64,000 nt of DNA from a virus: the UHGV virus genome UHGV-0306641; one strand, 5' to 3'. A program made the position numbers and the translations under genes. Under the pieces are notes generated by a model. It had not been told where the DNA came from. It saw only the letters and a list, made by a program, of their open reading frames with translations, and searched no databases. Shown in pieces: positions 3,492-48,347 of the stretch (positions within the stretch are counted from its first letter, which is position 1; each line of letters starts with the position of its first letter).

Positions 3492-5695
3492 GCGAGACTG
3501 TTAACAAGGTTGCCGTCCTGAGTTCAGCAGTTAAGCATGCTCTCGTGGCAGATGTTCAATATCTTGAGTACCACGCTTCCTCTGCTTTTAACCGCAAGAT
3601 GAAGGGGATTATTACTCCGGGTTTCTACGGTGGGTTTGAGCCTGCTCTTGCTGGTGGTTTAAACCTTAAAATTACATCATCGCAGGGGCCTGGCGGTCAT
3701 GGTGTGGCCTCGGTAGATGTAAATAACCATCAGATAACCGTTCAACAAATTGAAGACGTGACGCTGGCGATCCCGGTAAATGGTATTACACGCGTAATAC
3801 TGGAAGCTAACTACCAGTACGGAGTCAAAACCAGTCAAGTTGACGATAGTTCTGATATCGATGCAGCGCGGATTTTTACTGCAAATATTAGTGTGCCGCT
3901 GGCAGGTAATCATCTGGAAATATGCCGTGTAACGGTACCGGCTGATGCGACAGAATTGACGCTGGATATGATCGATTATTCACACCGGCAAAACAAGGCT
4001 CTTGGCATTACGTTAAGCAGTGAGATAGACAGCGACGCAGAACATATTGGCGCATCATCTCACGCGGTAAAAAAAGCAGTAAAAGCAGCTCGTGATGAAA
4101 CAGAAAAACAGATTGAAGAACTGGTAGATAATGCGCCAGCGAGTCTCGATACGTTGAAGAAAATTGCGGATGCCATTAACAACGATCCTGATTTCTTCAA
4201 CACTCTAAACGCGGTTTTGGCGCTGAAGGCTCCACTGAATGATCCTGCATTTACAGGAATTGTCACAGTACCTACGCCACCATTAAGCGTAATCAACCAG
4301 CAGGTTGCTAATACCGAATTTGTTCACGCAGCCGTTGCAGCGTTAGTTGGTTCATCTCCTGAAGCTCTGGACACCCTGGCTGAGTTAGCGCAGGCATTAG
4401 GCAATGATCCCAACTTTGCCACCACGATGCTCAATGCATTAGCTGGTAAGCAGCCTTTACATGATGTATTAACATCTCTTTCAGGCCTCAATTCTGCAGC
4501 TAACAAACTCGCATATTTTAATGGCCGTAATAGCATGTCCTTGGCAAATTTAACTGCCGTCGGACGTGTCTTGATTGGTCAAGAGTCTGTAGTGAAGGTT
4601 ATCGAATATCTTGGTTTACTCGAAACGATAAGTCTCGCTGCCGGATCACTGCAAAAAGAGCAGAACGGTGCTGATGTACCGCAGAAGGATTCGTTTGTAC
4701 GCAATATTGGGGCTGCGCGGGCTTTCAGTAGCTCTGTAAGCATTGGCGGCGGAGGTGACTGGACGACAGCAGAGTTTATCGTCTGGCTTGAATCTCAGGG
4801 GGCATTTAATCATCCGAACTGGATGTGTAAAGGTTCATGGTCATACGGTGATAACAGGGTTATTACTGATACAGGGTGCGGGAATATCCAGTTAGCCGGG
4901 GCGGTTGTTGAGGTAATGGGCGAGCGTGGTGCGATGACTATTCGTGTCACAACACCAACAACCGCAACAAGTGGAATTCCCAGTGCTCAGTTTACCTACA
5001 TCAATCATGGTGATGGATATTTACCGGGGTGGCGCAGGGATTACAATACCGTGAATCCACCCTCTGAAGCCTATCCTGTCGGCGCGCCTATTCCATGGCC
5101 TTCAGATACGCCACCAGCTAACCACGCTATTATGCAGGGACAAGCGTTCAATAAAGCTGCCTATCCATTACTTGCTGTGGCGTATCCATCCGGCGTTATC
5201 CCTGACATGCGAAGCCAGACGATAAAAGGCAAGCCCGATGGTCGTGCGGTCTTGTCTCAGGAGCTTGATGGTATTAAGTCACACGACCACGGCGCAACGG
5301 TCGCAGCTACCGACCTCGGAAACCTGAATACAACCGGATTCGATTACGGTAATAAATCTGTTACGGCTTTTGACTATGGCACGAAATCAACAAGCAGCGG
5401 AGGCGAACACGCCCACTCGTTAGATGTTTATTATCTCAACACTTCCCAGCAGGCAGCGAAAGTCGGTGCCGGTGGTCAGTGGGCTGGCGGGGTGGGAACT
5501 CAGGGAACTTATGCAGGTGGGGCGCATGCTCATTCTGTTGGTATTGGTGCGCACGATCACGTTGTTGGTATCGGAGCACATGCCCACTCTGTCTACATTG
5601 GTGCGCACAGTCACGGCGTGACCGTTTCGCCGTCTGGTCATGCAGAAAACACCGTAAAAAATACCGCATTTAATTATTTAGTGAGGCTTGCATGA
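3488..5695 (+). CDS. Tail fibre protein with C-terminal His-x-His repeat tip
   Basis: 735 aa, Gly/Ser/Thr-rich. C-terminus carries repeated GAHxHSVxIGAH motifs (5500-5650), as in the metal-binding HxH tip of T4 gp37-type fibres. Followed by a Tfa-type chaperone gene. Confidence 0.6.
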   Translation: MSETVNKVAVLSSAVKHALVADVQYLEYHASSAFNRKMKGIITPGFYGGFEPALAGGLNLKITSSQGPGGHGVASVDVNNHQITVQQIEDVTLAIPVNGITRVILEANYQYGVKTSQVDDSSDIDAARIFTANISVPLAGNHLEICRVTVPADATELTLDMIDYSHRQNKALGITLSSEIDSDAEHIGASSHAVKKAVKAARDETEKQIEELVDNAPASLDTLKKIADAINNDPDFFNTLNAVLALKAPLNDPAFTGIVTVPTPPLSVINQQVANTEFVHAAVAALVGSSPEALDTLAELAQALGNDPNFATTMLNALAGKQPLHDVLTSLSGLNSAANKLAYFNGRNSMSLANLTAVGRVLIGQESVVKVIEYLGLLETISLAAGSLQKEQNGADVPQKDSFVRNIGAARAFSSSVSIGGGGDWTTAEFIVWLESQGAFNHPNWMCKGSWSYGDNRVITDTGCGNIQLAGAVVEVMGERGAMTIRVTTPTTATSGIPSAQFTYINHGDGYLPGWRRDYNTVNPPSEAYPVGAPIPWPSDTPPANHAIMQGQAFNKAAYPLLAVAYPSGVIPDMRSQTIKGKPDGRAVLSQELDGIKSHDHGATVAATDLGNLNTTGFDYGNKSVTAFDYGTKSTSSGGEHAHSLDVYYLNTSQQAAKVGAGGQWAGGVGTQGTYAGGAHAHSVGIGAHDHVVGIGAHAHSVYIGAHSHGVTVSPSGHAENTVKNTAFNYLVRLA

Positions 5696-6303
5696 TTAAA
5701 TTAATTCTTTCAGCACCTGTTCCTGAAATCGCGAAAGCATTTGAGCGAAATTTTTCCGATGATGAAAATGTAGAAATTATCAGAAAGCCGTTTCAAGCAA
5801 TTCCAGATTTTGATTGTATGGTCAGTGCCGCTAACTCTTTTGGTCTAATGGATGGAGGTGTTGATGCTGCTATTACAGCTTTTTTTGGCACGCAACTAAT
5901 GACCAGAGTTCAGCAGAAAATTGTTGATGAATATTTGGGTGAGCAACCCGTTGGTTCTGCTTTTGTTATAGGTAGTGGAGATTATAAACATCCTTGGCTA
6001 GTACATGCCCCAACGATGCGTGTGCCTTTAATTATCGACGGTACTGACGCTGTTTATCTTGCTACGCGGGCAGCATTGCTTGCTGTATATCACCACAACA
6101 AGACACATCCAGAACACAGTAAAATTTGGCGTGTTGTTTTTCCTGCTATGGGGGCTGGATGTGGGCAGGTATCACCCGAAAGTGTAGCTGCACAAATGAA
6201 ATTGGCGTGGCGGAGCGTTATAACCCCGCCGTCCTACATTAATTGGCAGCATGCTATTGGAAGACAGCGTGCAGTTCATTCATCCTGTAGTGGAGCTTTA
6301 TAA
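5692..6303 (+). CDS. Macro domain protein (ADP-ribose binding/hydrolase fold)
   Basis: 'DCMVSAANSFGLMDGGVDAAITAFFG' matches the macrodomain signature 'DAIVNAAN..L.GGGGVDGAI..AAG'. A later 'GSAFVIGSG..HPWLVHAPT' matches 'G.A.iT.aG.L.akyVIHaVGP'. ATGA and TAATG overlaps with both neighbours. Lower GC than flanking genes. Confidence 0.7.
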   Translation: MIKLILSAPVPEIAKAFERNFSDDENVEIIRKPFQAIPDFDCMVSAANSFGLMDGGVDAAITAFFGTQLMTRVQQKIVDEYLGEQPVGSAFVIGSGDYKHPWLVHAPTMRVPLIIDGTDAVYLATRAALLAVYHHNKTHPEHSKIWRVVFPAMGAGCGQVSPESVAAQMKLAWRSVITPPSYINWQHAIGRQRAVHSSCSGAL

Positions 6304-27963: not shown

Positions 27964-28357
27964 AGTTTTCTAACAGAAAAATACCTTGCTTTAAATATAT
28001 TAAAGCCTTAGATTTTAATGGAGCAAAAGAAAGGCCCGGCTATGCCGGGCCTCACATTCACCTGTAGGTTTTCGCCGTCAAACTTAGGCCTACAGAGAAC
28101 AACAGGACTATATCATGAAAACATACGCGCAACGCGATTTTGTAAACCATCCTCAGCTTTCTGCGAAAAAAAACGATGTTTCCTCTCTGGAAAAGACCCT
28201 CATCGTATGGGGATCTCTGCTTCTTTCAACCTTCGGCGCGGCTTGGATTCTGAGTCTTATCTACCAATTCGCGATCCGTTGAACAACCTCACCTAAGCCC
28301 ACACAAAAACCGAATAATATCATCGGGTTTTGTATTCTATTCGGCGTTTACATAGCT

Positions 28358-33386: not shown

Positions 33387-33456
33387 TGATCAGTAAGCAG
33401 GGAGAAACCTACATGATCAAATGAGTGATCAAAAAAAGTGATCATTTGCGTGATCA
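33387..33456. repeat. Cluster of five TGATCA (Dam-site) hexamers at the pacA 5' end; pac-like site, possibly also parC-like
   Basis: TGATCA at 33387, 33414, 33426, 33439 and 33451 with ~12-13 bp spacing; includes TGATCACTCTAA. The P1 pac site is built from TGATCA/G hexamers regulated by Dam methylation. Confidence 0.45.
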
Positions 33457-33512
33457 CTCTAAAAACCAGACCGCCTATCCTCGCGGCAGAGTGGTTTTGG
33501 GCGGTAGGCGTA

Positions 33513-34742
33513 ATGGCAAAGATTGACTGGGATTGGCACAGGGAAAATTATAAAAAACATAAACTTGAGTCAGGTGTGACTTACAAGGAGTATGCCGAAT
33601 ACCATTCCTTAAACCCGAATACCGCACGCCGCGAACTGAGTAAAAAGGTGGGTGATGAGGGGCAGGCACCCACGGTCCCGTCGCGTGATCAGGATGATGA
33701 TCTAACCATCAGGAGAAAGGGGAGAAAACTCAAGCATAGCAGTGCCTTAGAGGAAATTACCGGGCAGGGTGAACCCGGCGAAACACGCGCAGGCACGAAA
33801 AATAAAAAAAATAATTCCAAAGGCACACGCGCCAAAATGATCAAACCAGTGCATGAGGGGGAAGTGATCCCACATGTACCGAAACAACGAGGTAAGGGTA
33901 AGCAATTCGAAACCGGCAACGAGGTGAATGTTGTCGCGAATACCAGAGGAAAGCCACGCGAGGTTGATCGTGATGCTGCTGTCTCATTGTTGGAAGCTGG
34001 CCTGGAAGAATGCGAGGCATCCACAGTTAAAACAGCTGTCGAGCATATGCAGCTGTTGTCGCGAACCACAGCCAGGGCAGTAGAGCTATTCGAAACTGAA
34101 ATAGCCAATATGAATATCCCACGAGAAAAGGGTGACAAGGATGGTGATGACGATGCTCCGTCCGGGCCACACCCGCTGTTAAAGCTGACAAAACTCCTGA
34201 TTGAAGTCGGCTACAGGATGGATGACCACGCTACCCGTATCAGTTCTATCCGTTCCTCACGAGAAAAGCTCAAGATTGACCGTGAAAAGCTGGGCGCAAA
34301 AGCGACCGAAGCACAGGTTATTGCCACCGCCTACCAGCTGCGTGATGAAAACGACTGGGATATAGCAGAAACCGCTGAGTACATCGAGCGTCATGGGGTA
34401 AAACTGCCGGATTCAATCGCCTTGAGGCTGGCTAAGGAGATCAAGGAAGCAGAACCGCCAGTTAGTGACGTCAACGCTGTAGATGATGACCAACTGGAAG
34501 AAGAGGCCCGTAAATATCGTGAAGCGCAGGCCGGTAAAGAAGCCTTCCTGAAAGAGCGCCGGGAAACTATCGCCAGGATTGTAGACGAGGGCGGGTATGG
34601 CGATACGAACCATGACGGTATCAGGCGCGAAGGGGAGCTAGACCCGGATGAAGAGGGCTTAGATCTCGATTACGAAGCGACCCGCGAGTTATACGGCGAA
34701 GGCGATGAGATCGCGATAGCGCCCCCGGATGAGGACGAATAA
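33513..34742 (+). CDS. pacA: Terminase small subunit, PacA-like
   Basis: Probable ATG at 33513 after AGGCG (track ORF starts 33438). TAATG coupling to the large subunit. Acidic C-terminus. Lies beside the TGATCA cluster. Confidence 0.45.
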   Translation: MAKIDWDWHRENYKKHKLESGVTYKEYAEYHSLNPNTARRELSKKVGDEGQAPTVPSRDQDDDLTIRRKGRKLKHSSALEEITGQGEPGETRAGTKNKKNNSKGTRAKMIKPVHEGEVIPHVPKQRGKGKQFETGNEVNVVANTRGKPREVDRDAAVSLLEAGLEECEASTVKTAVEHMQLLSRTTARAVELFETEIANMNIPREKGDKDGDDDAPSGPHPLLKLTKLLIEVGYRMDDHATRISSIRSSREKLKIDREKLGAKATEAQVIATAYQLRDENDWDIAETAEYIERHGVKLPDSIALRLAKEIKEAEPPVSDVNAVDDDQLEEEARKYREAQAGKEAFLKERRETIARIVDEGGYGDTNHDGIRREGELDPDEEGLDLDYEATRELYGEGDEIAIAPPDEDE

Positions 34743-36253
34743 TGGCATCCGGGAAGAAGAAAATTAAATGTGTAACCTCTGATCCGCGCTGGCGTGAAAT
34801 GGCTATCCGCTATCGCCATGACTGGGGGTTAGCGGTCGTTGAATTGTTCGGAATGCAACCGAGCTGGCAGCAGGATGAAATACTGCAGTCTGTCCAGCAG
34901 ATAAAGAGCATGACAACCGTTACTTCGGGGCATGGTACTGGTAAGTCATCCCTGACAGCCATGATGCTGATGATTTACATGATCCTGTACCCGGATGCGC
35001 GCGTCGTCATCATCGCGAACAAGATTGCGCAGGTAAAATCCGGCGTATTCAAGTACGTGAAAACCTTTTGGGCCAACGCCGTAAAACGTCATCCGTGGCT
35101 GCAGAACCACTTTGTTTTAACCGACACCATGTTTTATGAGAGAAGCCGGAAAGGGGTGTGGGAAGTTCTCTGTAAAGGCTATCGTCTGGGTAATGAGGAA
35201 GGGCTGGCAGGGGAACACTCCAAACACTTACTGATCATCTTGGATGAGGCGTCCGGTATCTCTGATAAGGCGATCGGCATCCTGACCGGTGCGCTGACGG
35301 AAGCTGATAACCGCATGCTTATGCTGTCCCAGCCAACGCGCCCGTCTGGTTACTTCTACGACTCTCACCACAGCCTGGCGAAGACTGAACATAACCCTAA
35401 AGGGATCTGGACGTCGATTGTCCTCAACTCTGAGGAATCACCGTTTGTAACAGACGACTTTATTGTCATGAAGCTGGCGGAATATGGCGGTCGTGACAGC
35501 ATGGAATACAAAATCAAGGTACTGGGCCAGTTCCCGTCCGTGATTGATGGCTTCCTGTTGGGCCGCGATGCCTGTGAGCGCGCCCAGCGTCGTAAAGTGT
35601 ACCTTGAGAAAAACTGGGGCTGGGTGGCGCTGGCTGACGTTGGGAACGGTCGTGACAAATCCGTCCTGAACATTATGAAGGTAAGCGGCTATCGTGAGAA
35701 ACGTCGGTTCGTTCCGTTCGTTGTGCTTGAAATGCCGGGTACCATGAACCCTACAGAGTTCGGTGACTTTATTGCGAACGAATGTACTCAGGAGCGGTTC
35801 CCCAATATCACTATAGGCGTGGATAGTGACGGCGTAGGCTCAGCTACTGCCGATCAGCTGGAGCGCAGGGGGGTTAACGTTGTCCGTATCCGCTGGGGTA
35901 AACCTATGTTCGCCAAAACAGATAAGGACCGATTCGTAAGCCAGAGAGCCTATGCCAACATCGCAGCTCGTGACGCCATACAGACGGGACGTATGAGGCT
36001 GGACTCATCGCCAAAGACAGCAGAACAGGCTTCAAAGATACCTTGGAAGATAAACGAAGATGGGCGTGTGGCGATGATGAAAAAGGATTACATGCGGCAG
36101 AAGATGAATATCAAGTCGCCAGACCGTTGGGATACGTACTGTTTTTCAACGCTTATATCGTATCGCCCTGCAAATGATGACCTGGGTGGAGACATGGAAG
36201 AAACCCGCGCAGATGCACTGGCAGAACTGTCGAAATATGACGATGTGATTTAA
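34742..36253 (+). CDS. pacB: Terminase large subunit, PacB-like (ATPase plus nuclease)
   Basis: 503 aa. Walker A 'TSGHGTGKSS'; Walker B 'LLIILDEASGI'; C-terminal acidic nuclease-domain residues. Confidence 0.65.
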   Translation: MASGKKKIKCVTSDPRWREMAIRYRHDWGLAVVELFGMQPSWQQDEILQSVQQIKSMTTVTSGHGTGKSSLTAMMLMIYMILYPDARVVIIANKIAQVKSGVFKYVKTFWANAVKRHPWLQNHFVLTDTMFYERSRKGVWEVLCKGYRLGNEEGLAGEHSKHLLIILDEASGISDKAIGILTGALTEADNRMLMLSQPTRPSGYFYDSHHSLAKTEHNPKGIWTSIVLNSEESPFVTDDFIVMKLAEYGGRDSMEYKIKVLGQFPSVIDGFLLGRDACERAQRRKVYLEKNWGWVALADVGNGRDKSVLNIMKVSGYREKRRFVPFVVLEMPGTMNPTEFGDFIANECTQERFPNITIGVDSDGVGSATADQLERRGVNVVRIRWGKPMFAKTDKDRFVSQRAYANIAARDAIQTGRMRLDSSPKTAEQASKIPWKINEDGRVAMMKKDYMRQKMNIKSPDRWDTYCFSTLISYRPANDDLGGDMEETRADALAELSKYDDVI

Positions 36254-36283: not shown

Positions 36284-37318
36284 TCAATCTTTCTTAGTCA
36301 GGATGTTAAAATTCTTACCGCGACGGCTGCGTGTATCTCCAAACATAGAACGCAGCTCTGAGATAGTAAGAATATTGTTATTGTCGGTCGCAAACTTCCT
36401 TTCAAGTAATTTACGGTCCTCTTCTGTAAGCAATTCAAGCTTACGCCTACCCGCCTCTATTGAGCGGTTAGCTTTTTCTATTTCAGCCTCTGTTTTTGCC
36501 TTTGCCAGCTTAGTTTTAGCCCGTCTTTCAAAGTGGGTAATACGGCTTAAAATTGATTGCTCAACGATAGTTTTTTGCGCAGCTTTGGCCTCTGCAATCT
36601 CTATTTGGTCAATGCCGTAAATATCCCCAACCGTAAATATTGAGCACTTCAATGGTTTTATAAGACTATACTTATTGAAATATTCTGTTTTAGGCTCAGT
36701 TGATATTTTAATGTCGTCCTTTGTCCATTGCGGGTGATAAATCATGACGCCATGAGTCCCGCAACGTGCGCGCGTACTCTCATTTTCACCTTTAAAAACA
36801 ACATCTAAGACAGTATCCTGATACCCACTGACACGGTATCGGAACTTGTGTCCTTCGGGGTATGCTTCAAATGTTTCCATTTCCTCAGTGAGCGCTTTAA
36901 CGGCTTCATTTGTATGAGGAAACTTTCTAAGTTTCTTTATTTGCTTTTCATATCTATTAAGCAAATCCTCGCGTGTATGAGTGCATGTTGTTGCAGCATT
37001 AAAAAAACCAATAGCTACGGACACTGGTTCAATTATTAACATTGGAACCGGTGAATATATAGCTGTCGATATGGCTATGCTTTTGTTTTTCTTCATCTCA
37101 GTAGCAAGTTCAGCAAACTTTTTCCACCGAATTTGTAAATCAACAGCTTTATTAAAAATAGCCTCATCGTTTGAAAATGCGATAGGACGAATCTTCTCGT
37201 CTTTGGCATTTCTGCTGTGACAGATGGCGAGTGAATCAACCAGTTGCATCCAGTCTTTTTTGGTCTGCAAAAACAACTTGTACTGCTGCTCAAACATCAC
37301 GTCATTAAACGCTGGCAT
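36284..37318 (-). CDS. Hypothetical protein in a low-GC island (possible defence/accessory moron); Lys/Glu-rich coiled coil in the transcript 3' part
   Basis: 344 aa on the opposite strand, between pacB and lox-cre. Lower GC (~37%) than the neighbours. Confidence 0.45.
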   Translation of the reverse strand: MPAFNDVMFEQQYKLFLQTKKDWMQLVDSLAICHSRNAKDEKIRPIAFSNDEAIFNKAVDLQIRWKKFAELATEMKKNKSIAISTAIYSPVPMLIIEPVSVAIGFFNAATTCTHTREDLLNRYEKQIKKLRKFPHTNEAVKALTEEMETFEAYPEGHKFRYRVSGYQDTVLDVVFKGENESTRARCGTHGVMIYHPQWTKDDIKISTEPKTEYFNKYSLIKPLKCSIFTVGDIYGIDQIEIAEAKAAQKTIVEQSILSRITHFERRAKTKLAKAKTEAEIEKANRSIEAGRRKLELLTEEDRKLLERKFATDNNNILTISELRSMFGDTRSRRGKNFNILTKKD

Positions 37319-40793: not shown

Positions 40794-41468
40794 ATGGAAT
40801 ACATCATCGGCAAGGGGGTGAGTGTCTTCACCCTCGATGGCAACGAAATCGACCAGAGAAGTATCGACCTAGCCTTGTTTACCCTTACCGGCTTCACGCC
40901 CATTAATACCAATGGTGTTACGGTATGGGAGCGCGGTAGCGAGCGCTACTGGACGCCACCAGACACGCAGGTAGAGGACGCGGATAGCATATCTGATCAT
41001 CTGAATGCGAAGGTAATGGTACCGTCACAGGATGCCGGTTTCGCGCAACGGCTATTGCGCCTGGTGCCGATGGTGGTCAATCCGATCGTGTTTATTGAAG
41101 GTCGTTTGGTTGGTGGCTGGCAGGTCGAGAATAACCCGGAGCCAAGCACCGGCGACATTATGACAAACGGTCATCAATCCCATTCTTACCAGGACACAGT
41201 TTTACCCATGGCTATTGCAATGGTGTTTCTGCAGGTACAGGGGTTGGGCCAACAAGCCTGGGTCTATATCGGGGAGCACGATGGCGCGCAGCCGGAGCTG
41301 CATTACGTGGTCCCTCACCCGCGCACCCTGGCATTGTTGGAAAGCACACCTTCATTCATCCGCGCGCCGGAACTTGATAAGTTCGCGGTAGTCGGTCCGT
41401 CGCCAGACTTTATACAAGAAGCGTTTACGACCGCTAAGCTAAAGCAGGCCGCTCGCGTTCCTGAATAA
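40794..41468 (+). CDS. Hypothetical protein
   Basis: 224 aa; TAACATGG coupling to the previous gene. Confidence 0.35.
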   Translation: MEYIIGKGVSVFTLDGNEIDQRSIDLALFTLTGFTPINTNGVTVWERGSERYWTPPDTQVEDADSISDHLNAKVMVPSQDAGFAQRLLRLVPMVVNPIVFIEGRLVGGWQVENNPEPSTGDIMTNGHQSHSYQDTVLPMAIAMVFLQVQGLGQQAWVYIGEHDGAQPELHYVVPHPRTLALLESTPSFIRAPELDKFAVVGPSPDFIQEAFTTAKLKQAARVPE

Positions 41469-42894: not shown

Positions 42895-43335
42895 TCAGGC
42901 GACCTGGTGGCAGGTAACGCCCATAGAACGGATAGCGGCGCACACGTCCGGGTTATCATCGAACGCGCACAAAATGTTTTCGGTGCCGATGTTCCTGATC
43001 CAGTCACGCTTAATTTCAGCTGGTGGGCGGTGCTCTTTCTCCCCACGCATAATCAGGCGGTCATAAGGGATCTGGTATCGTGATAACCAAGCAGCTGTTT
43101 CCGCATAGGCCACCTCTCCCCGGCTTGTAAGAATGAAAATCCTGTAATGTCTGCTCAGTGCCACCAGCAACGCGATATTCGCCATGATGGGAGTATCTTT
43201 CTCACACGCCAGGCTAAAACGGTCCCAGTTCGGCGCGTGGCTCATCATGTCCAGGCGAGGAATGAGATCCTCACGGTGGCGGTGGTCAGCCAACGTATTG
43301 TCCAGGTCAAACACCACGATATCTGCAGTGGTCAC
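42895..43335 (-). CDS. HAD-superfamily phosphatase (5'-nucleotidase / polynucleotide 3'-phosphatase-like)
   Basis: HAD motif I 'VVFDLDNTLAD' at the N-terminus; downstream 'FILTSRG' (motif II) and 'AFDDNPD' (motif IV). Confidence 0.5.
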   Translation of the reverse strand: MTTADIVVFDLDNTLADHRHREDLIPRLDMMSHAPNWDRFSLACEKDTPIMANIALLVALSRHYRIFILTSRGEVAYAETAAWLSRYQIPYDRLIMRGEKEHRPPAEIKRDWIRNIGTENILCAFDDNPDVCAAIRSMGVTCHQVA

Positions 43336-43473
43336 AAAAACACTCCTGTCATTCGTAAGTGAACAATAATAATCAATATGATTCTAAGGTATTTGTATTT
43401 ATCGAATGGATAAATTACAGCATTCCGTTTTATACTCTGAGAATACCATTAAATCTAAGGGTTTTTAAAAGGG

Positions 43474-44148
43474 TTGTTCATGCTTAGTACAGAGGATCGG
43501 GATGCACTCTACGAAAAACAGCGAATCGCAGCGCAACGGCAGCGCGAACGTCAGAAGACCAAGCTGGCTGACCCAGCTTATCGGCAACATCAACAGGAAA
43601 AACGGCAGGCGGCAGCACAACGATCCGCCGAAAAACGATTAGCCCGTATCCGTTCACCGGAGTATCAGGAAGCGCAGCGTGAAAAACAGCGCATTAAGCG
43701 ACAGGAAACAGCACAGAAACCACGTACAGCACTTACCGTTACCAAAACCCGTAAAACCTCAACGCGAGGACTGAAAGGCAGAACCCCGACCGCAGACGAA
43801 CGGCGCGTAATGAATGCGTTAGCCAAACTCCCCTGCACCGCTTGCTGGCTGCATAAACACCACCAGCCAATTGTCAGCCTGCATCATGTAAATGGGCGCA
43901 CTGCAGCTGGCGCGCATATGGATGTTTTACCGTTGTGCCGGTGGCATCACCAGGACGCGGCCCCAAAAGCAGATCGCGAGCAATACCCGTGGCTGGTGCC
44001 GGTTCATGCCAGCGGCAATGTTGGCGGAAAGGCCGAATTTACGCGCCTGAACGCCTCCGAAGAAGATTTGCTACTCATGGCCTACGAACAGGCTGGAATA
44101 ATCAGAGAGGTACATGGTGTGCCACTCGTAAAAAGGAACGAACAATAA
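43474..44148 (+). CDS. HNH endonuclease with a basic disordered N-terminus (P1 Ref-like architecture)
   Basis: 224 aa. N-terminal ~100 aa Arg/Lys/Gln-rich coiled region; C-terminal 'CTACWLHKHH...HHVNG...CRWHH' Cys/His HNH-type metal site. TAATG coupling to the next gene. Confidence 0.5.
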   Translation: MFMLSTEDRDALYEKQRIAAQRQRERQKTKLADPAYRQHQQEKRQAAAQRSAEKRLARIRSPEYQEAQREKQRIKRQETAQKPRTALTVTKTRKTSTRGLKGRTPTADERRVMNALAKLPCTACWLHKHHQPIVSLHHVNGRTAAGAHMDVLPLCRWHHQDAAPKADREQYPWLVPVHASGNVGGKAEFTRLNASEEDLLLMAYEQAGIIREVHGVPLVKRNEQ

Positions 44149-44936
44149 TGAGAATAAAACATTGCGCCACATCTGATCCACGTTGGGTGGAGCTGGTAGA
44201 GAAATATCAGAGTAACTGGAATCAAGCGATGATAGACATCTTTGGTATGACACCTACAGATCAGCAAAAACTGGTGATAGAAAGAGCAAGCAAACCGGGT
44301 TCACATACAACGGTAACAACCCCTAGTGGAATTGGTTGTAAACACCTCATAAGTGCTATTGCCATTCTCCTCGTAATTCTTTATCCCAATGGGCGAGTTA
44401 TCATCCCATCAATGGACGTTGCCGCCACCAAAAGCCAAATAATGAAGTACATGAAGCAACATTGGTATAAAGCGATTCAAAATCATCCATGGCTTGATAT
44501 TTACTTTGACCTAACGAGCAACGGAATCCATGAACGAAGCACCGACCGCCTTTGGTTTAGCAGTTTTAAAAGCGTCAGAAAGTATCCAGAAAGCATAGCT
44601 GGTGAATATGCCAAACATCTGTTTTTCATTTGCCCTAATGCCAATAGCTTATCCGAAAAGATAATGGGAATTATCAATGCCTCATTGGTTGAAAGGGACA
44701 ATGGAATACTGCTCACAGGAATACCATCAGAACACCGTACTTACTTTTATCATAGCCACCATAGGCTATCAGGGGATCTATATTCAGCGATTCAATTGAG
44801 TGCCGAAGATTCTCCACTCGTAACGCCGGAATACATAGAGATGAAAAGACGTGAACTTGGAGGACGCGACACAAACGCTTATCGGATGCAGGTCCTGGGC
44901 CTTTTCCCAAACGAATCATCCACCAGCGATATATAG
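44148..44936 (+). CDS. Truncated paralog of the terminase large subunit ATPase domain, with degenerate Walker A/B
   Basis: Colinear with the PacB N-terminus: 'CATSDPRWVELVEKYQSNW' vs 'CVTSDPRWREMAIRYRHDW'; 'IFGMTPTDQQ' vs 'LFGMQPSWQQ'; 'YFYHSHHRL' vs 'YFYDSHHSL'; 'QVLGLFP' vs 'KVLGQFP'. Walker A is 'SGIGCKH' instead of 'GHGTGKS'; Walker B 'LLIILDEASG' is replaced by 'LFFICPNANS'. No nuclease domain (262 aa). Confidence 0.6.
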   Translation: MRIKHCATSDPRWVELVEKYQSNWNQAMIDIFGMTPTDQQKLVIERASKPGSHTTVTTPSGIGCKHLISAIAILLVILYPNGRVIIPSMDVAATKSQIMKYMKQHWYKAIQNHPWLDIYFDLTSNGIHERSTDRLWFSSFKSVRKYPESIAGEYAKHLFFICPNANSLSEKIMGIINASLVERDNGILLTGIPSEHRTYFYHSHHRLSGDLYSAIQLSAEDSPLVTPEYIEMKRRELGGRDTNAYRMQVLGLFPNESSTSDI

Positions 44937-44944
44937 GTGTAACA

Positions 44945-45175
44945 GTGACAAGAACAGCAACGGAACGGGCCTTAAATCCCCACGGACACGTATATATACT
45001 GGATGGATTAACCAAACTCCATATTTGTAAGATTTGCGGAACCTGTGAGCGCCGGAACGGACAATATTGGTGGGCTGGTAAGTGGAGTAAGACAGAGCCG
45101 CCGTGCGGCCTCAACACAGATGGACAACGGGACTGGCATAACAATGCAAACCCTGACAACGAAGACGAACCATGA
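44945..45175 (+). CDS. Small Cys-rich (zinc-ribbon-like) protein
   Basis: 76 aa with 'CKICGTCERR...C' in the sequence. Confidence 0.2.
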   Translation: MTRTATERALNPHGHVYILDGLTKLHICKICGTCERRNGQYWWAGKWSKTEPPCGLNTDGQRDWHNNANPDNEDEP

Positions 45176-45369
45176 CCGGCTGCAGGACGATAAATAATTC
45201 CTTGACGCAAAAAAAACACAAAGTACAAACCGCATAAAATCCTCGCAGCTTTTGTGTTCCCTTGAGGGTACTTTTGACAATTTAACTTCCTGCTTTAGCG
45301 CGGTTGGGAACATCAATAGCCAGTAAGGGGCCGCAATCGCGGCCTTTTTGCTTTCTGGAGGATAGAAAA

Positions 45370-46029
45370 TTGAGTCAAAAAATAGCTGTTTTCAGTCTCT
45401 CAACATCAACCCCGCTCTATGTCACCGCCATCTATAACGATGACAACAACCTGATAATGAGCACCCCGAAATCACTTCCCAACTCATTAAAACAACAACG
45501 AGTAAAGGTGATCCCCGCCGTCGAGAAGTTACTTAAAGCTGACTTTAAGGTGCTGGTGGATGAAACCAGTGGGACCATTGCGAGCGAAAGTGGCGCTCAC
45601 CATGTTTCACTGAAGACGCGACATACAGACTCGCGCGCTGCAGTTTTGGTCGGCATCGAGCGTTACAACGAATTGCGCCTCCAGAAAGCCATTTCTCTTC
45701 CAGAGAAAAACCCCGGCGCATATGAGATCCCGTCTTCTATCGTGGACATTGATTACAACGCCGCCGGTGACGAGGTATATCACATCAACTGGCAGGATAT
45801 TCGACCCGAGCACCTGCTTACGATCATGTGCTGTTTTGCCACGGTATACCATCCTGTTACTTCTGCTGCGTATATCAAAGCCATGACCGGCTGCAGCGAA
45901 GAACGCGAGCAGCACCCGCTATTACGCGTTTTCGGGAATCTCATTAAGCATCAGGAAGTGACCAGTGCAAACGCCGTACCGCCATCGCTAACCGGGAAGC
46001 GAATCAGTGATAACGAGGTCATTCTATGA
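45370..46029 (+). CDS. Hypothetical protein (first of a 3-gene overlapping operon)
   Basis: Probable TTG start at 45370 after GGAGGA (track ORF starts 45304). Confidence 0.35.
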   Translation: MSQKIAVFSLSTSTPLYVTAIYNDDNNLIMSTPKSLPNSLKQQRVKVIPAVEKLLKADFKVLVDETSGTIASESGAHHVSLKTRHTDSRAAVLVGIERYNELRLQKAISLPEKNPGAYEIPSSIVDIDYNAAGDEVYHINWQDIRPEHLLTIMCCFATVYHPVTSAAYIKAMTGCSEEREQHPLLRVFGNLIKHQEVTSANAVPPSLTGKRISDNEVIL

Positions 46030-46355
46030 GTTACAACCGCCTGGATGACCGCACAATTGACGATCCTATCCTGCTGGCATTGTTTCATCAGGAAGTCATT
46101 GCACGGGCCACCAGCTACAGCGCCGACAACATCTCTTACACCATCAAGCCCGATGAGGTTTACCGTTCTGATTTGTCGGCGTTTCGCTGTTACGGCAATG
46201 AAGAATTACGCTGGGTATTCCGCCTGCTGGTGGGGCATGAATCTGAAACTGAAGCCATGCCGGTTGGCACAACGTTAACCGTGCCGCCGGTGGCCTGGAT
46301 ACGTGACCGGATGCGCGACTATGCGTCGGGAACGGTGGAGTTAATCAGTGGCTGA
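46026..46355 (+). CDS. Hypothetical protein
   Basis: 109 aa; ATGA overlaps with both neighbours. Confidence 0.35.
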   Translation: MSYNRLDDRTIDDPILLALFHQEVIARATSYSADNISYTIKPDEVYRSDLSAFRCYGNEELRWVFRLLVGHESETEAMPVGTTLTVPPVAWIRDRMRDYASGTVELISG

Positions 46356-47550
46356 TTTTCCCCGCGCCAGTAACGGTCGATATCAAACAGAAGGCCTAAG
46401 CGCTCGCGAGTTCGAACGCCTATTCAACCAGATTGAGAAGGATAAGCGAAGCAAGCGCCGCGCCGCTCGCCGCACTCTGACGCCGTTTTCACTGAAGAAC
46501 AAAACAGCCGAAGATATCCTCTCGCTTGGCAAGAAGAAAAAAGGCGGTACGTTCTTCACGGTCGAAGACCTGAAGGCATTTGAAAGTCGCCGCAAGGATA
46601 TCCGACAGACGTTCAATTCAGGCGTCGCCGGGATTACCTATGCCCAGCTCATAGCCGGAAGTGAAGCGATTGACGTTAAACGTGCTAACAACGCCGTAGA
46701 CGACGGTTCCGGCATTAAGCGCGCCGTGCCTTCATCATTGAAGCATAACGTCGTCACAGTCAGCGTGGAGGCTTCAGATCGATCCGAAGACCAGCATCAC
46801 CGCGTAAAAGTACGCTTTGAGGAATGGGATTCACTGATTGATGAGCTGGGGGATGAGACTAGCGCGGTAAAAGTGACGAAAAAGCTGTGTGCCGGTCGCG
46901 TATCCTTCGATTGTGATTGTGGTCGTCATCAATACTGGTATCGCTACATCGCGACCGCTGGTAACTTTGCCCTGGCACCACCAAAGGAATATGCCTTCCC
47001 CAAAATCCGTAACCCTAATCTCAAAGGGATCGCCTGTAAGCACGTGATCCACGCAATGACCCGACTCCAGTCGGCAAGCTGGCAATTGCGGATCGGTCAG
47101 GCCATGCTGCAGGCCGCTAAGCGTGTAGGGTTCGGTGACGACAAGCGGAGAACTACCAAACATTTCACTGAGGAAGACCGGAAAAGATTCAACAAGAACC
47201 GTAACTCACAGACTAACCAGGGGGCGATGCGTCAGGAGTGGGATAAATACCAGCGCCGCCAGAAAGCGCTGGGTAATCAGATTGCGCGAGACAGTACAAA
47301 GCTACGTTCCCTCAGCGACAAACTACTAAAAGCCCGGAAAATGACGCAAAAACAACGGGCAAAGGCAGAAGAAAGTCAGCAAAAGCTTAAAGCCGAGCAG
47401 GATAAAAACAAGGTGCTGCAGCAGCAGCTCGCCGATCGTTTCAAGGTGGAACGCCAGGCGTTTATTGATGCGATGATAATGACTGGTGTATCACGTCAGG
47501 ACGCCGAGAAGCGCTTCCTGGACTACGTGAAAAACAAAGGCAGGGGTTAA
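46348..47550 (+). CDS. SWIM zinc-finger protein with a C-terminal coiled coil
   Basis: 400 aa. 'FDCDCGRHQYW...GIACKHVIHAM' is a CxCx(n)CxH SWIM motif. The last ~150 aa are Lys/Gln-rich heptads. Confidence 0.4.
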   Translation: MADFPRASNGRYQTEGLSAREFERLFNQIEKDKRSKRRAARRTLTPFSLKNKTAEDILSLGKKKKGGTFFTVEDLKAFESRRKDIRQTFNSGVAGITYAQLIAGSEAIDVKRANNAVDDGSGIKRAVPSSLKHNVVTVSVEASDRSEDQHHRVKVRFEEWDSLIDELGDETSAVKVTKKLCAGRVSFDCDCGRHQYWYRYIATAGNFALAPPKEYAFPKIRNPNLKGIACKHVIHAMTRLQSASWQLRIGQAMLQAAKRVGFGDDKRRTTKHFTEEDRKRFNKNRNSQTNQGAMRQEWDKYQRRQKALGNQIARDSTKLRSLSDKLLKARKMTQKQRAKAEESQQKLKAEQDKNKVLQQQLADRFKVERQAFIDAMIMTGVSRQDAEKRFLDYVKNKGRG

Positions 47551-47586: not shown

Positions 47587-48006
47587 TTACGCGTCCATGA
47601 ATGAGCTTGCCGGAATGTTAAAGCGCCGCGCAAGTGCTTTCATGTGATCCAGTGTTAATGAGCGAGTCCCGTTAAGGATACGGCTCACAAGCGATTTCTT
47701 ACCAATCTCTTCCTCAAAATCACTCTGAGTCAGTTTGTGCTGGTCCATCAGGACACGCAGCAGGGCCACGCCGCTTGGTAACGCTGCAATACGCTCGTTG
47801 AACTCAGCCAACTCTTCCGCCTCATCTTCATACTGGGAAATTTTCGCAACCAGCATGTCCACCAGCGGATGATCTGGCTCGTGTTCAATCAGGTATTCAA
47901 CCAGCGTCAGCGCGTCTTCATAGTCCTTACGAGAGGCATTGCCCCCCAGGAGGGGGACAATGCTAACCAGGCTGTTTGCCGCCTGGAGAGCATCGGTATA
48001 CATCAT
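47587..48006 (-). CDS. higA: HigA-like antitoxin (HTH, Xre-type)
   Basis: 139 aa, downstream of and overlapping the toxin gene. C-terminal HTH 'LTQSDFEEEIGKKSLVSRILNGTRSLTLDHMKALARRFNI'. Confidence 0.5.
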   Translation of the reverse strand: MMYTDALQAANSLVSIVPLLGGNASRKDYEDALTLVEYLIEHEPDHPLVDMLVAKISQYEDEAEELAEFNERIAALPSGVALLRVLMDQHKLTQSDFEEEIGKKSLVSRILNGTRSLTLDHMKALARRFNIPASSFMDA

Positions 48007-48347
48007 TCTTTCGTTCTCCGGTAAAAATCTGTCAGCTTGTCGTATTCGGCATGTGTGGTTATGTGCTTTATGAAGATTTTCCCACGTTCAAAATCAGCAA
48101 AAAACATCACTCTCAAATTCCCGCCGCCTACATCGATCACCCACCACTTCTCCCGATATTTCATTCTGTCCAGCGAGGCAAATCGCTTCTTCATGTCGTC
48201 CGGTGAAGTGTAATTATCTTTCTTCAAAGTCCGGTATACGCTTTCAAGTGCCGCTGCCTGATTGGGAAATTGCCTGGTGGCTGTATCGAAGGGAATCCTC
48301 GATACAACGTGCATCCTTATCTCCTTTCGTTTCCATCTTGGAAACAT
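48003..48347 (-). CDS. higB: HigB-like toxin (RelE/ParE superfamily)
   Basis: 114 aa, toxin-first gene order. Basic, with 'WWVIDVGGGNLRVMF...IKHITTHAEYD' resembling HigB. Confidence 0.5.
   Translation of the reverse strand: MFPRWKRKEIRMHVVSRIPFDTATRQFPNQAAALESVYRTLKKDNYTSPDDMKKRFASLDRMKYREKWWVIDVGGGNLRVMFFADFERGKIFIKHITTHAEYDKLTDFYRRTKE

Follow-up and report, generated by a model that had tools for sequence, protein, structure and literature searches.

The stretch of DNA analysed here, 64,000 nucleotides of UHGV virus genome UHGV-0306641 (hereafter the window), is a P1-like phage-plasmid of Citrobacter type. Its region 43300-46100 aligns over the full length, at 96.4% identity, with two 85.6-kb plasmids of Citrobacter freundii. 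The subject of this work is a gene at 44148-44936, here called pacB', whose 262-amino-acid (aa) product resembles the ATPase domain of PacB, the large terminase subunit (TerL) of the element, and which directly follows a gene for a Ref-like HNH nuclease. The first-pass annotation had read the two genes as a co-evolved pair mimicking pacA-pacB, in which the Ref-like protein replaces the nuclease that the terminase paralog has lost. The genes on which the argument rests are as follows.

33438-34742, plus strand: pacA, partner subunit of the functional pacase, assigned by synteny with P1-like loci
34742-36253, plus strand: pacB, functional large terminase, with Walker A (GHGTGKS) and Walker B (LDEASG) intact and a C-terminal nuclease domain
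43480-44148, plus strand: ref, ortholog of P1 Ref, a RecA-dependent HNH nuclease of 222 aa; an alternative TTG start lies at 43474
44148-44936, plus strand: pacB', predicted catalytically dead paralog of the PacB (TerL) ATPase domain, without a nuclease domain, 262 aa
44945-45175, plus strand: orf76, small Cys-rich protein (C-x2-C ... C), PHROG 7369, unknown function
45370-46029, plus strand: mat, ortholog of the P1 'maturation control' gene (35% identity, E-value 9e-42 to P1 Mat), annotated as such in relatives

The product of pacB' was judged against the resident PacB (34742-36253). BLASTP aligns the two over PacB residues 10-266 with 100 identities in 257 positions (39%), 61% positives and an E-value of 2e-66, and the identity to the PacB proteins of the window element, P1, P7 and D6 is uniformly 39-40%. 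The protein ends at residue 262 ('VLGLFPN'), which aligns to about residue 266 of the 503 in PacB, so that the nuclease domain is absent. In Walker A, pacB' reads PSGIGCKH where PacB reads GHGTGKS, with a Cys in the column of the catalytic lysine; in Walker B it reads FFICPNANS against LIILDEASG, and both the Asp and the catalytic Glu are gone. The 'SQPT-R' motif is altered as well. The pairwise alignment thus bears out the first-pass description of the second gene as a truncated, ATPase-dead PacB paralog, with both the motifs and the nuclease domain missing.

The motif comparison was made on an alignment of 25 sequences, 11 dead and 14 from active PacB/TerL relatives. G-K-[ST] and [DE]-E-A-S are kept in all 14 active relatives, while the Walker A Lys and the D-E pair are absent from all 11 dead sequences, most of which also have changed 'SQPT-R' and 'AGEH' motifs. 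Other segments are as well conserved in the dead sequences as in the active ones, namely the N-terminal 'DPRW..Y..W..ELFG', 'YFYxSHH', 'SAEDSPLV', 'YGGRD..YR..LGxFP', the QQ motif and the P-loop glycines.

An AlphaFold2 model of pacB', built on a 37-sequence alignment, has a mean predicted local distance difference test score (pLDDT) of 95.1 and a predicted template modelling score (pTM) of 0.92. Its best Foldseek matches in the PDB are the TerL ATPase domains of Sf6 gp2, P74-26, T4 gp17, D6E and HK97, with E-values from 5.5e-11, and the Avs3-terminase complex 8DGC is also among the structural matches. Among the predicted viral structures of BFVD, all named top matches are terminases or terminase-type ATPases, many others being unnamed. 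According to the model, pacB' keeps the TerL-type P-loop ATPase fold of the additional strand catalytic E (ASCE) class. Given five features that define a functional TerL, pacB' presents the fold alone: Walker A, Walker B, the nuclease and the partner gene are missing, since ref is the gene 5' of pacB', and pacA is found next to the real pacB, at a distance of 9.4 kb.

In comparison with the PacB/TerL of P1, pacB' shares the N-terminal helical segment, the QQ motif, the lid-region motifs and the ATPase fold; it differs in being encoded away from pacA, in being dispensable, and in co-existing with an intact pacB. Searches of Pfam, NCBIfam and PADLOC returned neither a name nor a match for pacB', and when PDB sequences were searched with a profile, the sole match was to the nuclease part of Sf6 gp2. 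PHROG 5902 places pacB' together with PacB under 'unknown function'; it was considered as a family specific to the dead paralogs and discarded, given the functional PacB scores best against it. Two other identities were also discarded. The protein is not P1 Mat, to which it has no significant alignment (best E-value 2.0) and which is encoded at 45370-46029 in the window. Nor is pacB' a recent duplicate of the resident pacB: at 39% identity it is about equidistant from the PacBs of P1, P7 and D6, its base composition is different, both overall (GC) and at third codon positions (GC3), and it clusters in the tree with other dead paralogs, not with the resident PacB.

By sequence criteria, pacB' is a functional gene under purifying selection. 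Among three distinct alleles, the ratio of nonsynonymous to synonymous substitution rates (dN/dS) is 0.09-0.15, a constraint comparable to that on ref (0.14) and mat (0.13), and the variable codons divide into 22 with synonymous changes only and 10 with an amino-acid change. The reading frame is intact in 15 sequence variants from about 46 contigs, and pacB' has a good Shine-Dalgarno sequence before its start codon and is translationally coupled to the preceding gene. The pseudogene reading was rejected on the dN/dS values and on the integrity of the open reading frame (ORF). A related view would take pacB' as the decaying relic of a foreign pacB fragment under relaxed constraint. The loss of the catalytic residues and of the nuclease domain, the absence of this dispensable gene from relatives, and the rarity of its specific subfamily, which forms a single cluster at 90% identity, all fit such a relic. 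The low dN/dS, the very high confidence of the model and the well-formed translational start do not, and neither do three properties of the wider family presented below: members of one clade are only 32-47% identical and yet free of frameshifts and stops, the domain boundary at which they stop is the same in nearly all members, and at least 120 plasmids retain a related subfamily. A relic is, of all the explanations considered, the one we find hardest to credit.

The close and the distant relatives of pacB' were sought in two ways. A word-indexed search of 5.8 billion proteins found the single 90% cluster mentioned above, with its 15 sequence variants on about 46 contigs, several of them of about 85 kb; the named members are from Citrobacter freundii and one E. 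coli. The order ref-paralog-orf76-mat is the same in all examined members of this cluster. Wider relatives were obtained from an exhaustive HMMER scan of 1.84 billion cluster representatives. Four of these (P0017, P0019, P0020 and P0024) have 252-266 aa and end at the same domain boundary as pacB', while P0151 (228 aa) stops short of the C-terminal end of the domain. P0022 (366 aa) and P0016 (444 aa) carry C-terminal extensions unrelated to the nuclease, and P0067 and P0121 are more distant dead paralogs. The remaining short matches of the scan retain the motifs and are truncated terminases. A Pfam search of IsaA, the orf76 product and the C-terminal extensions gave no match.

A neighbour-joining tree with Poisson distances was computed from 272 columns of the ATPase domain. 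Eight dead sequences, pacB' included, form a clade (clade A) with 99% bootstrap, nested among P1-like PacBs, and P0067 and P0121 form another (clade B) with 93.5% bootstrap, beside a different set of terminases. All ten dead sequences fall into one clade in only 0.5% of the bootstrap replicates. Hence, the dead paralogs probably arose twice, a conclusion that is graded no higher because the tree is distance-based. The members of clade A are mutually 32-47% identical, with all reading frames intact. Across pairs of elements whose PacBs are 77% and 63% identical, the dead paralogs are 38% identical; they diverge faster than the functional PacBs of the same elements.

All the dead paralogs lie in accessory regions of P1-like elements, apart from those of clade B and P0024, whose contigs are too short to classify (2-3 kb in the case of clade B). 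An intact pacA-pacB is co-resident in all four elements for which the sequence is long enough. The contexts that could be read for individual members, by contig, are the following.

L007: P0017, after a radical-SAM gene
L008: P0019, upstream of parM-pacA-pacB-c1-cre
L011: P0020, after pacA-pacB-c1-cre-...-dut-Tad2-like-isaA-like
L012: P0024, after a gene for a protein like the single-stranded DNA-binding protein (SSB)
L013 (P1 variant MH422554): 364-aa member, overlapping the end of isaA, downstream of ssb and next to hxr-ddrB-ddrA-darA
L014: P0016, in a hot/umuC/Ead/DUF968 region, with an orf76 homolog two genes upstream and ref 7 kb away on the opposite strand

No partner gene shared across the family was found in these neighbourhoods; isaA precedes the paralog in only two lineages. 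P0016 is the closest relative of the window's pacB', and the orf76 homolog found two genes upstream of it in the unrelated element L014 (7441-7701) is 53% identical to that of the window. The presence of orf76 near a pseudo-terminase on two occasions may be coincidence or a loose association.

A further observation concerns P0121 of clade B, which overlaps a downstream gene of 368 aa (L017, 1062-2168) homologous to the tail protein gene of the window at 46555-47079 (36% identity, E-value 3e-29). In the window that gene lies two genes after mat, and P0121 is thus found beside tail genes in a distant element too.

The most widespread dead paralogs belong to a 364-aa subfamily located after ssb-isaA in P1 variants, for instance at 3498-6065 of MH422554.1 (AXF39147.1). 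The isaA product of that variant is 97% identical to P1 IsaA, and a P1 C1 operator with one mismatch stands just before ssb in its operon, at the place where P1 annotates Ossb. With the 364-aa protein as tblastn query, the subfamily was found at 80% identity or higher in at least 120 P1-like plasmids of E. coli and Salmonella, and a single match spanning at least 80% of the query was present in 162 of the 782 matching records. In a count that covers this one dead-paralog subfamily, it is present in about one-sixth of the P1-like plasmids in PLSDB. The additional tblastn places in P1-like plasmids were at first candidates for further paralogs, which was rejected for them as a set, given the two inspected are ordinary or split pacB genes; true second copies were recovered with a P0022-type query.

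In all the examples seen among the tblastn records, the 364-aa gene is annotated as 'hypothetical protein'. Where the name 'terminase large subunit' has been given to a dead paralog (in MH422554 and in one metagenomic record), the annotation is, judging by the catalytic motifs, wrong in the functional sense. In reference P1 (NC_005856.1, 2052-4394), an IS1 insertion sequence lies immediately 3' of isaA, where the variants hold the paralog. This position suggests that reference P1 may have lost the gene through IS1 insertion.

Compared with the 364-aa member of MH422554, pacB' is in the same dead clade, at 34% identity, and both are distal genes of a C1-type early operon that overlap the gene upstream. 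They differ in the locus (ssb-isaA for the 364-aa gene, ref for pacB'), in an extra C-terminal domain of about 100 aa (PHROG 17928) present in the 364-aa protein, and in abundance, the 364-aa subfamily being common and that of pacB' rare.

The gene upstream of pacB' is, on sequence evidence, an ordinary P1 ref ortholog at its usual place. Its product matches Pfam RecA_dep_nuc (PF16786) with an E-value of 2.1e-34 and 118.2 bits, against a cut-off of 26.9, PHROG 2321 'Ref-like RecA filament endonuclease' with 2e-66, and the solved P1 Ref structure 3PLW with 9e-50. Identity to P1 Ref is 49-53%, and the position before mat is that of P1. The Cys/His core (C-x2-C, HH, C-x-W-HH) and the Lys/Arg/Gln-rich N-terminal 100 aa both align with P1 Ref, the basic N-terminal region being about 36 aa longer in the window. 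Two parts of the first-pass annotation hold in consequence, namely the Ref-like HNH assignment and the architecture of a basic N-terminus followed by a C-terminal Cys/His core. The ORF it gave, 43474-44148 with 224 aa, is also correct in frame and end, and only the start is to be moved: ATG 43480, yielding 222 aa, is more likely than TTG 43474, as PGAP, the Prokaryotic Genome Annotation Pipeline, picks the ATG in a 96%-identical plasmid. That the locus might be an ordinary P1 pair of ref and a known neighbour is right for ref and wrong for the paralog, which is not Mat.

In P1 the layout is c8-ref-mat, with a gap of 79 bp between ref and mat. The window's ref likewise precedes mat and is itself preceded by promoter- and operator-like sites; to the ref-mat interval of P1, the lineage of the window adds orf76, and the window element adds pacB'. 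The latter addition has sharp limits:

44111-44953, plus strand: replacement cassette of 843 bp, in whose place close relatives have 17 unrelated bases

Within the cassette lie a new tail for ref (13 codons), pacB' and a new start codon, GTG, for orf76. The segment is poor in GC, with 42.7% compared with 54% in ref, 51% in pacB and 50% in orf76, and its GC3 is 0.41 where pacB has 0.60. Five other Citrobacter phage-plasmids, about 96% identical in the flanks, lack exactly 44111-44953; of the seven related Citrobacter plasmids in PLSDB, only two carry the cassette. Together with the low GC, which points to a foreign origin, these boundaries indicate that the 843-bp cassette was exchanged in by recombination between ref and orf76. 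The possibility that its 5' end is a remnant of the 3' end of pacA was rejected, since no convincing similarity extends beyond the Shine-Dalgarno sequence and TAATG.

The interval between c8 and mat has been reported as a hot spot for insertions in P1-like plasmids (PMC6906374). Other relatives have instead an insertion of about 460 bp between orf76 and mat (L003, NZ_CP099368.1, 4041-4501), and this second insertion confirms the ref-mat interval as a hot spot for small cassettes.

The same cassette-free arrangement is found outside Citrobacter. A phage-plasmid fragment of about 96% identity stands beside an ars operon in L004 (NZ_CP023978.1, 5001-9002) and in more than 140 other plasmids, which are large plasmids of Klebsiella, Raoultella, E. 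coli and Salmonella, most of them typed as conjugative. It comprises ref, orf76, mat, baseplate wedge, tail protein and HigBA genes, and its ref, which lacks the first few codons, has been called as two separate short ORFs. The segment 44111-44953 is missing here too, with 17 unrelated bases in its place, in a set of large plasmids from Klebsiella, Raoultella and E. coli that numbers more than 140.

The relatives without the cassette also settle how the overlap of ref and pacB' is to be read. The first-pass annotation had reported TAATG at both the ref/pacB' and the pacA/pacB junctions, which is correct, and had taken it as a sign that the one pair imitates the other. In the cassette-less relatives, ref terminates in '...REGR*', with a TAA that overlaps the start ATG of orf76 (GCGCTAATGGCT). 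Given the same TAATG is present there, the coupling belongs to the junction of the ref operon, that is, to the insertion site, rather than to the two genes.

This bears on the proposal that Ref and pacB' form a two-protein machine, with the dead domain as adaptor or clamp and Ref supplying the cutting in trans. The TAATG overlap and the shared operon, the constant company of the two genes in the window's lineage, and the fact that both proteins are DNA-related speak for it. On the other side, close relatives without the paralog have a complete, conserved ref, coupled to orf76 by TAATG, and the GC of the cassette marks pacB' as foreign to ref. Only in the window's own 90% cluster does ref adjoin the paralog; it does so in none of the eight other lineages with a readable neighbourhood, and in L014 it is 7 kb off on the opposite strand. 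No similarity match was found between Ref and PacA, and P1 Ref acts with RecA filaments and is not known to need a terminase-like partner. We regard such a machine as very unlikely, and the co-evolved pair of the first-pass annotation, in which Ref takes over the lost nuclease, is not upheld: the upstream gene is an ordinary ref ortholog before mat, near-identical relatives without the paralog couple ref to orf76, and the pairing is not a feature of the family. We infer from gene order and conservation that ref is an operon neighbour of pacB' and not its functional partner.

The remaining features of the locus are relevant to when pacB' might be expressed. In the 5' part of the gene order, a parM-like gene is followed by pacA and pacB, which overlap by TAATG, a C1-type repressor on the minus strand and a Cre-like recombinase; then come a number of genes without known function, a distant isaA homolog among them, and a phosphatase of the HAD/PNKP type on the minus strand. 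The 3' part consists of ref, the 262-aa ORF, the 76-aa ORF, mat, a baseplate wedge gene and the tail protein gene. The further features are these.

36284-37318, minus strand: C1-type repressor homolog, the C1 homolog of the element
40794-41468, plus strand: distant isaA homolog (PHROG 2326), not adjoining pacB' in the window
42895-43335, minus strand: HAD-family phosphatase of PNKP type (Pfam PF25109, 6e-15), divergent from ref
43346-43389, plus strand: promoter-like site CTGTCA-16-AATAAT, followed by an exact ATTCTAAGG motif at 43381-43389
43407-43460, plus strand: second promoter-like site TGGATA-18-TATACT, followed by AATCTAAGG at 43452-43460
45325-45348, plus strand: terminator-like hairpin with T-run, found by pattern match, the likely end of the ref-pacB'-orf76 unit

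The hairpin falls within the ORF of mat as extended to a TTG start (45304-45370), and since it lies inside the extension, the real start of mat is probably ATG 45370. The ref-pacB'-orf76 transcript thus probably ends just 5' of that codon, as far as the pattern match indicates. Further downstream, between the tail genes, a HigB-family toxin and a helix-turn-helix (HTH) antitoxin are encoded at 47587-48347 on the minus strand, and are so annotated in the 96%-identical plasmid.

Exact copies of ATTCTAAGG occur seven times in the window (17460, 31064, 31252, 38910, 42116, 43381 and 51628), against about 0.5 expected under uniform composition, and AATCTAAGG occurs at 28006, 43452 and 51518. When one mismatch to ATTCTAAGG is allowed, 16 sites are found in the window against 13.2 expected, which is no enrichment. 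The two motifs that the first-pass annotation had placed before ref, at 43381 and 43452, are hence real sites, and the enrichment of ATTCTAAGG is confined to exact copies. Of the ten A[AT]TCTAAGG sites, eight fall between genes and face the gene that follows, and the sequence 3' of the motif is often rich in T (..GGnTTTAAT).

In P1, C1 operators are annotated at ref (Oref) and at ssb, and the succession of promoter-like site and motif before the window's ref is that of P1 at Oref. By this analogy, the A[AT]TCTAAGG sites probably serve as operator for the C1-type repressor of the element (36284-37318, minus strand), and such an operator would differ from the P1 consensus ATTGCTCTAATAAATTT. From the position of the motifs we infer that the ref-pacB' operon would be early and repressor-controlled.

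What pacB' does is approached here from what it has kept and lost. Our preferred reading, to which we assign a probability of roughly 0.45, is that pacB' is an accessory pseudo-terminase, a packaging competitor that acts by binding a partner of PacB. Given it should neither hydrolyse ATP nor cut DNA, yet keeps the surfaces shared with PacB, it most likely binds a partner of the PacB ATPase domain, and would then act stoichiometrically, as a mimic of the N-terminal domain of PacB. The partner it occupies would most likely be PacA, or else a slot in the PacB ring, or the portal. In lambda and T4, the docking site for the small or recognition subunit is in the N-terminal part of its large partner, which makes PacA the prime candidate.

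Complexes containing pacB' would be unable to cleave pac or to translocate DNA. Made early, before the late burst of PacB, pacB' could have either of two effects: (a) premature pac cleavage of the element's own replicating DNA would be held back until late PacB out-titrates pacB', or (b) the pacase of a co-resident or co-infecting P1-like rival would be sabotaged.

Several points weigh against this packaging competitor. The target of pacB' could be something other than packaging proteins, and the retained P-loop glycines and QQ motif, read from the sequence, may allow residual binding of nucleotide or phosphate. A poison of PacB-type motors ought to damage the packaging of the element that carries it as well. 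Repressor control is deduced from the position of a motif only, and if the operon is indeed repressed in lysogens, the exclusion of superinfecting rivals becomes harder to explain. The neighbours of the family (Tad2-like, ssb, ref, hot) suit counter-defence or DNA metabolism equally well. Finally, the tree is a neighbour-joining tree only, and the contexts of clade B come from contigs of 2-3 kb.

One alternative, an accessory role in DNA metabolism, would have the inert TerL-like domain serve as a DNA- or protein-binding module working with SSB, Ref and IsaA. Two unrelated C1-controlled early operons end in a paralog, headed by ref in the window and by ssb-isaA in P1 variants and L012, and P0016 and P0022 have extra non-nuclease C-terminal domains. 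The neighbours of other members are unrelated, however (a radical-SAM gene, a secreted protein, orf102), and operon ends are generic landing sites for acquired genes. Moreover, the family is found only in elements with PacB-type terminases, a restriction that points to a packaging-linked target. We consider this role improbable.

The pattern of accessory location, fast divergence and catalytic loss is typical of genes involved in conflict or regulation, and the patchy distribution and fast divergence fit a role in conflict better than one in housekeeping. For the family as a whole, it is possible, and we propose it tentatively, that the pseudo-terminases are conflict genes, either dominant-negative poisons or PacA traps directed against the packaging of competing P1-like elements, or decoys for immunity of the Avs1-3 kind.

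The decoy variant, applied to pacB' itself, holds that a TerL mimic made early binds or mis-assembles Avs1-3, or other sensors triggered by terminase, before PacB appears; if so, the element would be protected on induction or infection. Avs1-4 bind the large terminase and portal folds directly (PMC13581612), and KpAvs2 responds to TerL as well as to Ksap2, a small accessory phage protein whose fold weakly resembles the TerL ATPase (PMC11564622). The presence of the Avs3-terminase complex 8DGC among the structural matches of pacB' points the same way, as do the patchy distribution and the fast divergence. Neighbours of the counter-defence type are found in L011 (Tad2-like and dUTPase genes) and in the P1 variant (ssb-isaA beside the dar operon), and early repressor-controlled expression, if correctly deduced, would suit a protein needed before PacB.

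None of this support is direct. The Avs3 sensor reportedly contacts the ATPase and nuclease active sites of TerL, which are missing in pacB', so that binding may be weak, and a mimic of the fold is as likely to trigger the receptors as to block them. A search with pacB', Ref, orf76 and three further family members gave no match in PADLOC-DB v2, which covers defence proteins rather than anti-defence ones. The decoy function is the main rival explanation for pacB', though a doubtful one, and the packaging competitor is retained as the preferred reading.

Known proteins offer partial likenesses to such a competitor. Ppi of Staphylococcus aureus pathogenicity islands (SaPIs) and Rpp of phage-inducible chromosomal islands (PICIs) are small proteins without enzymatic activity; they bind a terminase subunit stoichiometrically and in this way divert packaging or block it. 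Their likeness to pacB' is functional only: sequence and fold are unrelated, they are borne by satellites and they target the helper's small subunit, whereas pacB' is homologous to the large subunit and resides on a complete phage-plasmid, and interference by it is only proposed. Ksap2 (PMC11564622), like pacB', is an accessory phage protein of unknown function that resembles the TerL ATPase and is tied to terminase-sensing immunity.

The first-pass annotation had presented the arrangement as undescribed, and no description of it was found in the open-access literature. Catalytically dead terminase paralogs were likewise sought in open-access full texts, and no account of them was found, either for P1-like elements or for others. 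We know of no such paralogs under selection having been described. What is new here is the pseudo-terminase family, a pseudo-enzyme offshoot of TerL; Ref and its position were already known.

Among the hallmark proteins of tailed phages, large terminases are the most conserved. Should the family modulate or sabotage headful packaging, it would matter both for generalised transduction and for competition among the phage-plasmids that spread resistance genes in the Enterobacteriaceae. If the members are instead immune decoys, they would represent a new way to evade pattern-recognition receptors. A role in conflict, if true, would add a new mechanistic class of phage interference or counter-defence, derived from a mimic of the packaging motor.

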